Shown here piece after piece: positions 58,821 to 63,978 of a stretch of 64,000 nt of DNA (position 1 is its first letter; each line of letters opens with the position of its first letter). Location: positions 118,478 to 182,477 of the forward strand of contig CAWFJE010000009.1 of NCBI GenBank assembly GCA_963816155.1, written 5' to 3'. The notes under the pieces were generated by a model that saw nothing but the letters and a program-made list of their open reading frames with translations, made no database searches and was not told where the DNA came from. A program made the position numbers and the translations under genes. This stretch comes from an uncultured Actinomycetes bacterium. GTDB taxonomy: Bacteria; Actinomycetota; Thermoleophilia; RBG-16-64-13.

Positions 58821-58965
58821 CGCCGGCTTCGAAGCAGTTCCACCTTTGGTTGTATTAACCCAAGGCGCGCCTCCCGCTACGCTGCATCTCCCAGCCGCTA
58901 ATCCAGTCGAGTGGTATTCAGCGACCGGGACGTAGCGGAACCAAATAAGAGGGAGGAAGGGATAG

Positions 58966-59084
58966 ATGAACAGCGTGCATCTCATCGGCCGCCTGGCCAC
59001 GGACGTGCACGTGAAGGAGGTGAACGGCGGGTCCAAGGTCAGCAGCTTCATCCTGTCCGTGGACCGCAATGCTGAAGAGGCGGA
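58966..59084 (+). pseudogene. ssb: 5' part of an interrupted single-stranded DNA-binding protein gene
   Basis: Strong RBS; MNSVHLIGRLATD...FILSVDRNAEEA, after which SSB similarity stops abruptly. Confidence 0.85.
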
Positions 59085-59335
59085 GGTCGCAATTCTGCTA
59101 CATCCGCGTCAGCTTGCACCTCCTCCATCAAGCCCGGCGAAGTCATGCACGCTGATGCTCCACAGTGCGAACCGGCCGAAACCAGGGGGGTTGGAGGTAA
59201 GAGCAAGTAGCAAAGTTGGAAACCCTGAACTCCACGTGGCACGAAGCCGACCAGACTGCTTCCTATCCATGCCGTCTGGCGGGCACGATTGTGGCGGGTG
59301 CTTCGTAGGTGCGGCCCCGGCAACTCCGAACGGTT

Positions 59336-60624
59336 CTACCGCGTCGGTGGCGGGACCACCTTCGCGCGTGAAGGCTCGCGCACAAGAAGGACGATGAGAA
59401 TCGCGCCGAGCACCAGCAGCAAAGCAGTGGTGAAGAAAGCCCCGCCGGCGCCGTAGCGACCGTAGATCCAGCCTCCCAGAAGTGGACCGATCACCCCGCC
59501 GAGAGCAGCCGCGGCGGTGTAGTAACCCAGCGCTGAACCCTGGCGGGCGTTGTCCGCAAGGTCGATCACCAGTGCCTCCTCGGCGGGCGTCGCGGCGGCG
59601 AAGGCCGCAGCCTCGAGGACCCAGAGAACGGCCAGCGGCCAGAGCGACCGAACGAAGGGGACCGCGGCGGCGGCCAGACCGGCCATTGCCAGCGCGGCCA
59701 CGATCGGCGGGCGCCGCCCGAGGCGGTCGCTGATGCGCCCAGTCGCGAGGGGAGCACCGACCCGGCGACGGCTGCCGGCAGGAAGGCGAGTCCGAGAGCG
59801 AGCATGCTGGTCGAGACGTTGTCGAACAGGTACGGCATCAGGATCGGACCGAGGAGAGCGGTGGCGACTGCGGTCAAGCCCACGATCCCCATCAAGATCC
59901 ACAACTGGCCGGGGAGGCGCCACGCCGCACCCCCGGAGGCCCGTCGATCCTGGGGAGCCTCAGATACCCTGTCGTCATGGCTCTCGCGTTGAGCGAGGGT
60001 CTCCGGGATCTTCCGCCACACGATCGCGGCAGCGACCAACGTAGCAGCTGCATACGCAAGGAAGAGCAGGCGCCACCCGCCTGCGAGCGTCAGCCACTCT
60101 CCGATTCCGTCGCCTTCCAGTAGAGCGAGAGCAGACCGAATCCCACGAGAGATCCCACGAGGGTGCCGCGAAAAGCCATTTCTTCGATCCGTCCGTATTC
60201 TCTCCCGCGACGGTCGCCGGACGCCAGATCCGACACGATGGACAGAGCGGCAAGCCAGGTGAGACTCGCTCCCACACCCTGCGCGACCTGGGCGAGATAC
60301 AGACCGACCTACCCCGGTCGCGAGACCAAAGACCACGTTCGACAGGGCATAGGCCAGCAAGCCGGAGATCAGGAAAGGCCTCCGGCCGAGCCGGTCCAAC
60401 CCGCGTCCGACGAAGGGCTGAGAGATGACGATGATCGCTGCATAGGCCGAGAACAGTCCACCGATCGCGAGAGGGCCGGCTTCCATCTCCCGTGCGATGA
60501 GGGGCACGCCGAGCAGCAGCATGCCAAAGGGAAGGGACACGAGGAACACGCTGAGCCGCAGACGCCGGAGGTACCGGTCGTTGCCAGAAGTTCCTCGTAT
60601 CGTCCGATGCGACGGGTGCGCCAT
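59336..60624 (-). CDS. MFS transporter (several frameshifts)
   Basis: G..LDRLGRRP and GRISDRLGRRP motif A in both halves; hydrophobic helices across three frames. Confidence 0.8.
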
Positions 60625-60861
60625 AGGCAACCATGACAAGCTCCTAGTCGTGTCGAACCTGCCCCGTACTTTCTCACACTCGACTGACGTCGATGAGACG
60701 TGATGGACAGCGAGGTGTGTGTGACGCCAATAGCAGCGACCCCGGGCCGACCAGCGCCTGCCCCGCGCGCGCAGCCGACATCCTGCGTTGTCGTATACCA
60801 TAGACGGCGGTCGCGGCTGACGCCGTAGAACGTTAGGCATCTAACCACAGGAGCAGACAGT

Positions 60862-62169
60862 GTGAAAGCGCATGCGGCGAAAACATCGTCCGTACTGTTC
60901 GAGAATGTTCGAATCTTTGATGGTAAGGCGGCTGCACTTTCTGCGCCTTCCCATGTCCTGGTACGAGGCAACAAGATCGTCCGTGTTGCTCTGTCGCCGT
61001 TTGGCGGCGAGGACCGAGTCGGGGCGACCGTCATCGACGGAGCCGATCGCACGCTGATGCCAGGACTGATCGACGCACATGCTCATATGATCATGGAGAG
61101 CATCCCACTGGGAGTTGCTATCACCTCGGAGGTTGGCTACCTGCACCTCCTTGCCGGGCAGGCTGCCGGGAAGCAACTGCTCCGCGGTTTCACCACCGTC
61201 CGCGATGTCGGTGGTCCCGCCTTCCCTCTCAAACGCGCCATCGACGAGGGACTCCTACCCGGACCCCGCATCTATCCGTCGGGCGCGATGATCTCGCAGA
61301 CTTCCGGACATGGGGACTTCCGCTTGCCCAACGAGCATCCGCTGGATTTGTGTTGCGCCTCGCTCAGTTTTGGGGAACAAGCTGGCGTAGCAGCCATTGC
61401 CGACGGTGTGGCGCAAGTTCTGCTCCGTGTGCGCGAAAACCTGAAGAAGGGCGCCAGCCAGATCAAGGTGATGGCTGGTGGCGGCGTCTCCTCGAACTAC
61501 GACCCGCTGGACGTTTCGCAATACACCTTCGAGGAAATGAAGGCGGCGGTGGATGCCGCCGAGAGTTGGGGTACCTATGTTGCCGTCCACGCTTACACCC
61601 CGAAGGCCATCCAAATGGCGATCCAGGCCGGTGTGAAATGCATCGAGCACGGCAATATGGCGGATGACGATACCGCCCGCCTCATGGCGGAGAAGGGCGT
61701 GTGGTGGTGCCTGCAGCCTTTTCTTGACGATGAAGACGCGATTTACTTCCCAGAAGGCTCCGATAACCGGAGAAAAGCGCTCACGGTGATGAGTGGCACA
61801 GACACGGCTTACGAATACGCAAAGAAATACAAGATCAAGACCGCATTCGGCTCAGACACACTGTTCGATGCCAAGCTCGCCACGCGGCAGGGGGCGCAGC
61901 TCGCCAAGCTGGTCCGTTGGTATTCTCCGACCGAGGTTCTGAAGATGGCCACCAGCGACAACGCCGAACTGCTGGCGTTATGCGGGGAACGCAATCCCTA
62001 TCCCGGCAGGCTTGGCGTCGTCGAGGAAGGCGCGTTGGCCGACCTGTTGCTCGTGGATGGCGATCCTATCGCGAACATCAAACTCATCGAGGACCCGGCA
62101 AAGAACTTTCTGGTCATCATTAAGGACGGAAAGCTGTTCAAGAACATCGTGCCCGCGGTTACACCTTGA
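60862..62169 (+). CDS. Metal-dependent amidohydrolase (Xaa-Pro dipeptidase-like)
   Basis: MPGLIDAHAH, GFTTVRD, IKVM, VHAY, IEHG, GSD and G.LADLL motifs. Confidence 0.9.
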   Translation: MKAHAAKTSSVLFENVRIFDGKAAALSAPSHVLVRGNKIVRVALSPFGGEDRVGATVIDGADRTLMPGLIDAHAHMIMESIPLGVAITSEVGYLHLLAGQAAGKQLLRGFTTVRDVGGPAFPLKRAIDEGLLPGPRIYPSGAMISQTSGHGDFRLPNEHPLDLCCASLSFGEQAGVAAIADGVAQVLLRVRENLKKGASQIKVMAGGGVSSNYDPLDVSQYTFEEMKAAVDAAESWGTYVAVHAYTPKAIQMAIQAGVKCIEHGNMADDDTARLMAEKGVWWCLQPFLDDEDAIYFPEGSDNRRKALTVMSGTDTAYEYAKKYKIKTAFGSDTLFDAKLATRQGAQLAKLVRWYSPTEVLKMATSDNAELLALCGERNPYPGRLGVVEEGALADLLLVDGDPIANIKLIEDPAKNFLVIIKDGKLFKNIVPAVTP

Positions 62170-62371
62170 CCTACGACCCGACAACCAGGAGGCTATTTCT
62201 CTTCGGTGGTTGGGACGCTCCCGATCAGGCGTCGAGCGACATGTGGGTCTTCGACCGCAGGCCCCGACCGTTCTAGGCGGGCACCAACATGAACGCGATG
62301 TCCGCAGATAGCAGGCGGCGGGGTCCCGCCACCTATCGAAATAGTTTTACCTGCAAATAGGCTCTTTCTTC

Positions 62372-62404
62372 CCTCTCAGACCCCGATTCGAACCGGGGAC
62401 AGCC
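62372..62404 (-). other. tRNA 3'-half-like remnant (T-arm)
   Basis: Minus strand GTCCCCGGTTCGAATCGGGGTCTGAGAG; no D-arm or anticodon arm found upstream. Confidence 0.35.
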
Positions 62405-62597
62405 GTGGGCCGGGGCCGTGAACCGTAGCGGTCTGGATGCGGGCCTGAAACACCCACGCACGGCGAATGGGATTCCAGCCCACGAGACCTTGCGGCCTGC
62501 GCGTCTTCCGGACCGGGGCACCCCCTTCGCATATCACTGCTGCGCTAGCAGACTCCTGATGGTGGCCTCATCATCGACGATCAACTCGCCGGTGACA

Positions 62598-63335
62598 TCC
62601 AGGGTCACGGACGGGGAGTTCGTGTTCGGGGGGAACATCGAGCCTCTCATTCCCATGGAGGTCTTCCGCAAGACCCTGCTTGCCATGGAAGCCCGCAAGA
62701 GACGGTCGCAGGCAGGACGTCCGCCGAGGGTACCGCTTACTGGGAGGCACGTGCGGTGCGGGACCTGCGGTGGCCCCATGTATTGCCGGTACTCGCACCA
62801 GGTGAATGACTTGTACTGCGGCTGCTACGAGAAGTCGCACGGCATGTGCGAGCGGGGCGTTGCCGTGCGAGCAGACTGGCTCATACCCGAGGTCGAGAGA
62901 CGGCTGCTCGAGCGCGTAAAGGGCGCGCGCACCAAGCCCAGGACCCTGCACGCCGTGGACCCGGTGGAGCCGTGTGCCGAAGAGGTCCGGCGAATTGAGG
63001 GCAGCCTGGGACAACTCGCGGCTCTCTTCGTCGAGGGGCAACTTCTCGAGGGCGAATACCAGGAGGCACGCAAGGTCCAGCTGCGCCGGCTCGCCGACGC
63101 GGGCAAGCGTCTCGACGGAGCCGTGCGCCGATCTGAGGCGATCGTCCGAGCGGAGTGCGTGGAGGAGATGCTGCGGGGACTCGCCGACATCGGTGCCGAG
63201 GGGTGGGCGGCCCTGAGCGTCCAAGCGAAGCGAGACATCTTCGACGTGGTGATCGACCGGGTCATCGTCTATCCGAAAGAGCAGCCTCACAACCGCTGGG
63301 CACCGCCGCACAAGATCAAGGTCCTCTGGCGCTAG
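62598..63335 (+). pseudogene. Large serine recombinase, C-terminal part only (end of recombinase domain, zinc ribbon, coiled coil)
   Basis: EPLIP.EVF, PLTG..RCGTCGGPM, YCGC...C, coiled coil and KRDIF..VIDRVIVY; no N-terminal YxRxS catalytic domain. Confidence 0.82.
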
Positions 63336-63383
63336 GCAAGCCGTCTTTCGGCTTCCTCTGTATGCAGAATTGCTAGTTTCGCC

Positions 63384-63431
63384 GAGGCGGACTTCTTCCG
63401 CATCAAGGCCTGGAACTCGCAGGCCGAGGCG
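63384..63431 (+). pseudogene. ssb: Internal continuation of the interrupted ssb
   Basis: Encodes EADFFRIKAWNSQAEA, the expected next SSB strand; similarity is lost again after 63431. Confidence 0.8.
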
Positions 63432-63555
63432 AACGGGGCAAATAGTCCCTTACCGCCAGCGGACGAGCAGCCGCAATGCGATCACGCTAGCGTCCGCGGT
63501 TTCACCAGCAAGCGAAGCGCCGTCCGGTGCAACCCGCTATTGGGCAAACTCCCAC

Positions 63556-63978
63556 CTACGACGTCTCGGCCCGCAGAGCAGCCAGCAACTCCACCGGACT
63601 GAACACCGGCAACTCCGAGGCCGCGAAGCCTTTCACATCGCGAGTCACGATGGCAGCAACCCCAGACCTTCGCCCGGCCTCATGCAGCACGGCGTCCTCA
63701 AAGTCCGCGAACCCGCTGTCGAGAGCGTTGCGCAGAACGTCGCGGTCCACGCAGGCAACATCGAACATCATGAGCAAGGTGCGGACGTGCTCCGCGGCCG
63801 CCGCTTGTCCGACGGCCTTGGAGGCCAAGTAGTGGATGGTCGTCACGGTAGTGGAGCAGACGAGTCCTTCAAGACGACCGGCATCCACCAGGCTCATGAC
63901 CTGCTCAGCAGCACCAACATGGGGCTCGCGGGCAAGTAGGTGGTCGAGCACCACTTTCGTGTCCAGAAGTACCTTCAC
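63556..63978 (-). CDS. PIN-domain (VapC-like) toxin
   Basis: VLLDT.VVLD, DFEDAV and IVTRD motifs. Confidence 0.88.
   Translation of the reverse strand: MKVLLDTKVVLDHLLAREPHVGAAEQVMSLVDAGRLEGLVCSTTVTTIHYLASKAVGQAAAAEHVRTLLMMFDVACVDRDVLRNALDSGFADFEDAVLHEAGRRSGVAAIVTRDVKGFAASELPVFSPVELLAALRAETS

Follow-up and report, generated by a model that had tools for sequence, protein, structure and literature searches.

What broke a small ssb gene in an actinobacterial genome, and whether loss of the interrupting DNA would give the gene back, are the questions raised by a 64,000-nt stretch (the window) that spans positions 118478-182477 of contig CAWFJE010000009.1 (C9; positions marked w count from the first letter of the window). 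The genome that holds it (G000; 3.09 Mb, 13 contigs, 98% completeness) was compared with 60 relatives, which gives a set of 61 genomes of the host's family. The insert at w59085-63383 is very probably a decayed integrative element, and a phage origin (a prophage or something akin to one) is most likely. A large serine recombinase (LSR) would have inserted it into a secondary ssb that is small and lacks the tail, with the crossover at the GA of codons 38-39. The target ssb is conserved in the host's family (Gaiellales/Thermoleophilia), and the copy interrupted in the window is a 54-codon relic rather than a live gene.

The 5′ piece of ssb opens with an ATG at w58966 and encodes the first 39 SSB residues, which cover positions 1-36 of the 104-position PF00436 profile (26.1 bits, cut-off 26). 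Codon 38 begins at w59077, 111 nt past the ATG, with the 8-mer GAGGCGGA (Table 1). A second copy of the 8-mer at w63384-63391, a spacing of 4307 bp, is followed by in-frame ssb codons for EADFFRIKAWNSQAEA. The contiguity of ssb and the symmetry of the attachment (att) sites were judged from separate alignments of each piece or half. By blastn against the intact copy on the same contig, the first piece matched query positions 1-113 and the second 106-152, so the two pieces are contiguous and have the 8-mer alone in common. The homology to ssb ends at w63431 (codon ~54), where the open frame enters unrelated sequence, a feature missed by the first-pass annotation of this DNA. That annotation had described the ssb break, the spacing of the 8-mers, the in-frame joining of the pieces and the inverted arms from the letters alone; every coordinate was borne out, and the contiguous alignment to SSB that it named as a check was obtained.

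The inverted arms, reverse complements of each other, are GCAATTCTGC (w59089-59098) and GCAGAATTGC (w63364-63373), and they sit 4 bp and 10 bp off the 8-mer repeat. In the 3.09-Mb genome GCAGAATTGC has a single copy and GCAATTCTGC has two; of the three, two are at the ssb break points. Dyad symmetry was scored as the complementarity of the left side of attR with the right side of attL over 24 positions at 22 possible centres, and the window attP scored 16/24 about GA compared to 3-10 at the 21 other centres. A chance origin of the inverted pair is unlikely because the 10-mer is nearly unique in the genome and the dyad score about GA exceeds that of the other centres. Both junctions, attL and attR, are kept, and the integrase gene abuts attR.

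LSR homologues were detected in 8 of the 60 relatives (E <= 1e-8) and on one IMG/VR contig. Eight of these nine (G060, G026, G034, G035, G036, G052, G018 and the IMG/VR contig) adjoin ssb halves broken at the same place, which agrees with the earlier proposal that a serine-integrase family targets ssb and is the arrangement that the annotation had said to look for beside homologous recombinases. The 3′ end of the integrase gene faces the ssb break in all eight, at a distance of 1.7 kb in G036 and 0.7 kb in G026, and the G052 copy is a remnant. Full-length homologues are 464-494 residues long, all six begin with a (F/L/Y)xY(I/V)RVS(K/R) stretch, and the integrases of independent elements are only 45-54% identical to the window remnant. 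Two scans with the integrase alignment used narrow patterns and are no census: the scan of genome contigs returned 6 loci, all in genomes already in the set, and the scan of viral sequences (IMG/VR) returned 1 locus.

The junctions beside these genes share one architecture. All attR junctions align without gaps as GCAGAA, 14 nt and GAGGCGGACTTC, and all attL junctions align without gaps as GA, 14 nt and TTCTGC or a near variant. The P-arm spacing of GCAGAA is common to the window, G018, G026, G036, G060 and the IMG/VR contig, and a P′ arm as in the window is present in ungapped alignment at 13 attL junctions from 10 genomes. The attL pattern occurs at 29 places in 23 of the 61 genomes; reading of the strings assigned 19 places in 15 genomes to the ssb type and 10 to other sequence, and a reversed control of the pattern had 0 matches in the 61 genomes. 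The attR pattern found five true sites in five genomes and one uninterrupted ssb fragment. The axis of the attP dyad falls between the G and the A of GA in four of the four elements with two junctions (G000, G026, G060 and G036), with scores of 16, 14, 19 and 16 of 24, respectively, compared to 2-11 at other centres. In G060, attL reads GGCCGAC and attR reads GGCGGAC, and because the two differ at this base the crossover would lie to its left, as GA requires. The core shared by attB and attP is 8 nt long in the window, 12 nt at locus D and 16 nt in G026. LSR sites are marked by an attP of ~50 bp whose imperfect dyad is centred on a non-palindromic dinucleotide and by an attB that has only a short core in common with it, and the sites described here have these features. 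The GA core and the imperfectly symmetric attP put forward by the first-pass annotation are thus right, and they hold in independent elements.

Two relatives have elements with an intact LSR. The ssb halves of G026 lie 59 kb apart at C21:97414-97539 and C21:156550-156750, and the insert (C21:97540-156556) encodes a terminase large subunit, a portal protein, a Mu-F-like protein, a tail-completion protein and an amidase. The G026 integrase has 476 residues with Resolvase (PF00239, 96.7 bits), Recombinase and Zn_ribbon_recom domains. Phage structural and packaging genes between the ssb halves identify the G026 insert as a complete 59-kb prophage with an intact LSR. The G060 element also has an intact LSR and splits the native ssb at the same GA. 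In both genomes the ssb 3′ half is directly upstream of a homologue of the STAND/TPR ATPase gene that accompanies small ssb genes in this family, and no other small ssb is present (completeness 100 for G026 and 96 for G060); the native ssb is therefore truly split in G026 and G060. At G026:C21:102953-105733 the prophage also carries genes for a restriction-modification enzyme of the MmeI type, a hybrid histidine kinase and, apart from these, a DNA methylase.

The window insert is flanked by a direct repeat of 8 bp and an inverted pair of 10 bp, which would also suit a transposon or an insertion sequence that has inverted repeats at its termini, duplicates 8 bp of its target and has no tie to the recombinase remnant. 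The arms are offset from the repeat by 4 and 10 bp and are symmetric only about GA across the junction of the closed circle, the length of the core varies among elements (8, 12 and 16 nt), a Pfam scan detected no transposase in the insert, and independent elements occupy the same base pair beside serine recombinase genes. A transposon is exceedingly improbable as the source of the insert.

Several observations count against placement of the insert by an LSR at GA. At the G018 site the ssb-like sequence extends for just ~25 nt beyond GA on the right, the G038 homologue (38% identity) is 13 kb from a whole ssb with no break adjoining, and a homologue fragment with 33% identity (G034:C175) is away from the ssb break. 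The intact attB has no dyad about GA (5/24) and a weak one 5 nt rightward (13/24). The integrase is at the attL end on the opposite strand in G026, G034 and G035, and we infer that the pseudo-symmetric attP is flipped relative to the element in these three. The amidohydrolase gene of the insert may be cargo or may have arrived later by rearrangement. Contigs of four sediment runs (85% likeness) yielded only short pieces of related organisms, none of which bridges or skips the insert; the same contigs contained no empty attB or circle junction, and both results are uninformative either way. Finally, the 13-contig genome may be a metagenome bin, so local misassembly is possible, and the junction types recur in independent genomes.

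Misassembly could account for the whole arrangement if two strains or loci of a metagenome bin had been misjoined at short repeats. The 13 contigs, a frame-broken MFS gene in the insert, the junction of two ssb copies past the window (copies B and C, below) and the LuxR end of the neighbouring STAND gene would fit such an error, and public runs contain small shares of the window only: window sequence was found in eight runs, with shares all <=0.11 and no RNA run listed. The same attL and attR architecture is found in other assemblies, including on contigs of 180 kb and 4.6 Mb, and neighbouring long genes are intact. The junction repeats are unable to mislead an assembler because they are merely 8-10 nt long. 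An assembly artefact is very unlikely.

Returning to an element placed by an LSR, the recombinase gene of the window appears from its sequence to be a remnant of an LSR and not a working member of the family: the catalytic domain is missing, and so is most of the recombinase domain. Its open reading frame (ORF) stops 28 bp short of the inverted arm and 48 bp short of the core. In tblastn with six full-length homologues the remnant aligned at residues 228-473 with 37-53% identity and weakly from residue 169, and nothing aligned before residue ~169-228. The 305-residue ORF had no match to the catalytic domain (PF00239) or to PF07508, and Zn_ribbon_recom (PF13408) scored 24.7 bits, below its cut-off of 25.3. 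The first-pass annotation had recognized the loss of the catalytic domain and had called on an integrase in trans for excision. G000 offers none: PF00239 and PF07508 have 0 matches in the whole genome, and the tblastn searches found its sole LSR homology in the window remnant. The MFS transporter, earlier listed as cargo, is a pseudogene with indels. An intact 434-residue MFS protein from G011 used in tblastn shows the window gene to be one base short and to have four extra bases, in two frames with 85% nucleotide identity. Intact homologues of this gene adjoin a like P′ arm in G011 and G012 and are 85-86% identical to the window at the nucleotide level, and the chromosomal STAND neighbours in these two genomes are just 57-59% identical in protein to that of G000. 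The element can no longer move because the N-terminal half of the integrase is lost, the genome has no other serine recombinase and the MFS gene is frameshifted. The window element is a fossil.

Table 1. Features of the interrupted ssb, the inserted element and the adjoining array unit (window coordinates)
Feature	Position	Strand	Evidence
Promoter-like upstream module of small ssb	58840..58965	+	Begins at the conserved CCAYCTTTGGTTGTAT boundary; blastn match to copy B starts here
ssb relic codons 1-39, B arm of attL	58966..59084	+	88.5% nucleotide identity to the intact copy over 113 nt
Core 8-mer GAGGCGGA closing the attL B arm	59077..59084		First two bases, GA, are the putative crossover dinucleotide
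P′ arm	59085..59110	.	TTCTGC at w59093-59098, offsets +16 to +21 from the G of GA
MFS transporter pseudogene	59339..60627	-	MFS_1 match on one fragment; homologue split over two frames
Amidohydrolase, intact 435-residue ORF	60862..62169	+	PF01979, E 2.3e-35
LSR remnant	62373..63335	+	Clear homology from w62592 (residue ~228 of 473-residue homologues) to the stop
P arm	63364..63383	.	GCAGAA at offsets -20 to -15 from the G of GA
ssb relic codons 38-54, B′ arm of attR	63384..63431	+	Opens with the second GAGGCGGA; 93.6% identity to the intact copy over 47 nt, to query position 152
Conserved non-ssb end after the site 2 break	63438..63463	+	Motif GSAAATA-N4-CYTACCGCCAGCGGA
PIN-domain (VapC-like) gene, first of the next array unit	63556..63978	-	PIN_3, E 8.4e-23

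A 67-nt repeat lies between the amidohydrolase gene and the recombinase remnant (w62269-62335), with a 94% copy at C4:19514-19580 and weaker ones at C4:7378-7460 and C5:33184-33241; the repeat matches no Rfam family and does not encode a tRNA. The copies on C4, C5 and C13 were checked and are not tRNAs either. The sequence at w62380-62400 has a tRNA-like look, and ARAGORN found no gene in w58000-64000 and Rfam nothing at E <= 0.1 in w58700-64000.

The gene that these elements enter is distinct from the housekeeping ssb. The housekeeping SSB of G000 is encoded on C2 between the S6 and S18 genes and has the C terminus GGDDIPF. The small SSB has 95 residues, ends in KRLEYL without an acidic-tip tail of the D-D-I-P-F type, and its gene is away from S6 and S18. 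The target is thus a secondary, tail-less paralogue, in line with the first-pass annotation, which had suspected a secondary copy; no observation favours the SsbB-like role that it had suggested by analogy with elements in transformation genes. The intact small SSB matches the OB-fold SSB domain (PF00436) over profile positions 3-103 of 104 (E 4.8e-21), and thirty solved SSB chains match it at E <= 1e-3. A full-length small ssb (>=80% identity) is present in 44 of the 61 genomes, G000 included, and nine more have fragments only; near-identical proteins carry Thermoleophilia or Actinobacteria source labels. The gene after the small ssb encodes a STAND/TPR ATPase (STAND/LuxR regulator) in 30 of the 30 full-copy loci examined, G000 included, and the sequence upstream is variable. 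Across 29 relatives the STAND neighbour is 46-74% identical and the small SSB 94-100%. Its wide presence in the family, its fixed STAND neighbour and its high identity establish the small ssb as a chromosomal, strongly constrained, secondary gene.

The full-length small ssb of G000 is at C9:185012-185293, ~8 kb downstream of the interrupted copy and beside the STAND/LuxR gene. The first-pass annotation had proposed that excision restores the ssb frame. Because the interrupted copy is itself a relic, excision would rebuild a 54-codon stump and no SSB gene. At C9:184759-185293, 2.3-2.8 kb past the window, a promoter and ssb codons 1-45 (copy B) abut codons 3-96 (copy C) out of frame. Copies B and C are 90% alike, and copy C has no start codon of its own save an upstream in-frame ATG that would give a 104-residue product. 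The full-length small ssb may be impaired in this strain. The adjoining STAND/TPR regulator gene (C9:185109-188309) has its LuxR (GerE) DNA-binding domain in a different frame, owing either to an error in the sequence or to a frameshift close to the 3′ end.

The relic belongs to an array of partial ssb copies, and the same layout is found upstream of the full ssb copy in all seven relatives in which arrays were compared (G053, G058, G012, G007, G005, G039 and G011). The repeats of these arrays share a left boundary at CCAYCTTTGGTTGTAT, which is the same in 12 copies from G000 and six relatives; they run through the promoter into ssb and are 190-260 bp long. Each repeat ends either at the GA site and a P′ arm or at codon ~54 and a second conserved end, site 2. 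The spacers between repeats are 2-4 kb with one to three genes, among them TetR plus ABC, MFS, sigma factor plus BNR protein, molybdopterin oxidoreductase, HepT/MNT, aquaporin and sulfate permease genes. No integrase family, tyrosine recombinases included, was found among the 71 ORFs of the seven arrays (E <= 1e-5). The strict site-2 motif (Table 1) occurs only beside ssb codon 54, in G000, G039 (C7:253849-253874) and G012 (C1:652095-652120), and G053 and G058 have looser versions; a search of the 61 genomes returned these three known ssb-linked copies only, with no free attP and no integrase-bearing element. Public data also contain several clusters of truncated SSB proteins (P0092 and neighbours) that have the site-2 junction.

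After codon 54 in G000 the order is the site-2 end, the PIN gene with its DUF6364 partner (just past the window end, E 3.8e-19), a degenerate attL scar, a Zn-ribbon/DUF4352 gene, copy B and copy C. The scar, at C9:182795-182841, consists of an ssb-like arm and GCACTTCTGCGACA, and similar internal scars lie ~140 bp past the site-2 end in G053 and G012. Another scar, 163 kb away at C9:14430-15400 between catalase-peroxidase-like and metallophosphoesterase/6PGD genes, has a promoter, ssb codons 1-41, a window-like P′ arm, an RHH/ParE (ParD/ParE-like) pair and 23 nt of ssb. The left-hand neighbour of the array (w56380-58752) is an intact gene for a sulfatase of 790 residues with a lectin-like domain at its C terminus. 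PADLOC assigned no family to any of six proteins (small SSB, STAND, amidohydrolase, Zn-ribbon/DUF4352, PIN and DUF6364), so a known defence system receives no support.

The modules of one array are 57-67% alike, and copy B of G000 has 87% likeness to the live module of G058, a member of a different genus. Separate arrivals are favoured over local duplication because copy B is closer to the G058 module than to its array mates. Serine-integrase elements would enter at the GA of ssb by LSR catalysis, either in a live gene or in a relic that still holds a complete attB. Site-2 units would, as a best guess, bring a promoter and 54 codons and so rebuild a whole ssb, and deletions would then trim both kinds of unit in the array. 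The order of these events could be the reverse of entry into a relic with the element and the mechanism unchanged: an integrase element would first have split a live ssb, and a second unit (promoter and codons 1-54) would then have recombined into the 3′ half, rebuilding the gene downstream and leaving codons 39-54 stranded beside attR. This history predicts exactly the order seen, promoter-ssb(1-38), element, ssb(39-54), site-2 end, unit and promoter-ssb; live genes are split by such elements in relatives, and the 57-67% likeness of array modules against the 87% of copy B and G058 again points to separate arrivals. The same map results if a site-2 unit came first and the element then entered a relic with a complete attB, and no intact site-2 unit with a recombinase was found among the ORFs of the seven arrays or in the motif search of the 61 genomes. 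Entry into a live gene has somewhat less than an even chance of being the true history.

A broader proposal, advanced here only tentatively and rather doubtful, is that the 5′ third of ssb is a gene-capture platform across a bacterial family. Integrase-less units of one to three genes (transporters, TetR/ABC pairs and toxin-antitoxin pairs) would spread between genera, each rebuilding ssb with its own promoter and 38-54 codons and leaving old 5′ ends as scars; serine-integrase phages may supply a recombinase in trans, or the conserved ssb may serve as homology. Such a platform would have an integron-like layout and a different mechanism. An integron has an IntI tyrosine recombinase beside attI and cassettes that each end in a folded attC site. 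An integron itself was rejected, since no integrase family is found among the 71 array ORFs and promoter-plus-ssb 5′ repeats are unlike attC; the likeness is one of layout only.

SCCmec composite islands at rlmH/orfX are built by CcrAB serine recombinases, and tandem genomic islands at tRNA genes carry replacement gene ends. The ssb arrays resemble SCCmec in their tandem build-up at one conserved gene, in the att-type repeats that bound units and in the many units without a recombinase. They differ in having 190-260-bp modules of promoter and 5′ coding sequence in place of 15-20-bp cores, in a site within the 5′ third of the gene and in that most array units are tied to no recombinase. As in tRNA-gene islands, each unit carries the displaced end of its target, with the whole gene on one side and truncated copies on the other; here, in contrast, the end replaced is the 5′ end with its promoter, the gene is protein-coding and no integrase was found among the array ORFs scanned.

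The large serine integrases of temperate phages and intervening elements interrupt host genes such as comK (A118-type phages), spsM (SPbeta) and sigK (skin). In these systems the integrase alone carries out attP x attB recombination, and excision requires a directionality factor. The elements described here share with them a recombinase beside attP, a ~50-bp attP with an imperfect dyad on a non-palindromic dinucleotide, a short identity with attB and insertion within a coding sequence from which excision would be in frame, and the G026 element is a prophage. They differ in their target, a small tail-less ssb paralogue of Gaiellales/Thermoleophilia-type bacteria, and in that the window copy is a fossil in a gene relic, where nothing indicates regulated excision.

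The first-pass annotation had regarded ssb as an undescribed target, and the literature corrects it on this point. In an LSR catalogue, a supplementary table of Pfam domains from genes that LSR elements disrupt records PF00436 for 7 of 1069 target gene clusters compared to 0 of 908 background genes (P 0.013, adjusted 0.065), and the accessible main text has 0 occurrences of ssb (Durrant et al. 2022, PMC10083194). SSB-family genes are thus LSR targets there as here; the accessible parts of the catalogue do not identify the organisms or sites of the 7 clusters. GInt islands, as described in the accessible text of Bardaji et al. (2017, PMC5385486), have a ginABCD operon with tyrosine recombinases and are inserted at the very end, rarely the start, of ssb with the product unchanged. 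They are a second case of unrelated islands that repeatedly pick an ssb gene as integration site, and they differ in that the arrays have no ginABCD operon or tyrosine-integrase domain in the ORFs scanned. A GInt island, which has ginABCD (three tyrosine recombinases and one further gene) at one end, was rejected as an identity for the insert or the arrays because no tyrosine-recombinase domain was found in the window insert (Pfam scan) or in the array ORFs scanned. The directionality factor of TG1 integrase is reported to be an SSB (PMC11795197), which is a loose link only. No account of a serine integrase that has its attB in ssb emerged from the literature searches, in which the supplementary entry of Durrant et al. 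was the sole record. The target class is thus on record, and within the reach of these searches nothing was found on the integrase family, its site, the host lineage or the arrays.

Taken across genomes, the comparative evidence supports the mechanism that the first-pass annotation proposed, LSR-mediated insertion at GA, and not restoration of the local gene. The window copy is a dead remnant of modest interest on its own. The sites provide a well-defined attB, several natural attP/attL/attR sets and a mapped GA core from a poorly studied actinobacterial lineage, and such att pairs are raw material for orthogonal integration tools. The arrays merit follow-up most and pose the question of what moves units that have no recombinase; with their horizontally shared cargo they would be a case of a conserved gene turned into a long-lived landing pad. 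Temperate phages of these sediment and soil bacteria disrupt a conserved second SSB at its native locus, and both the role of this gene and its control by phage become testable.

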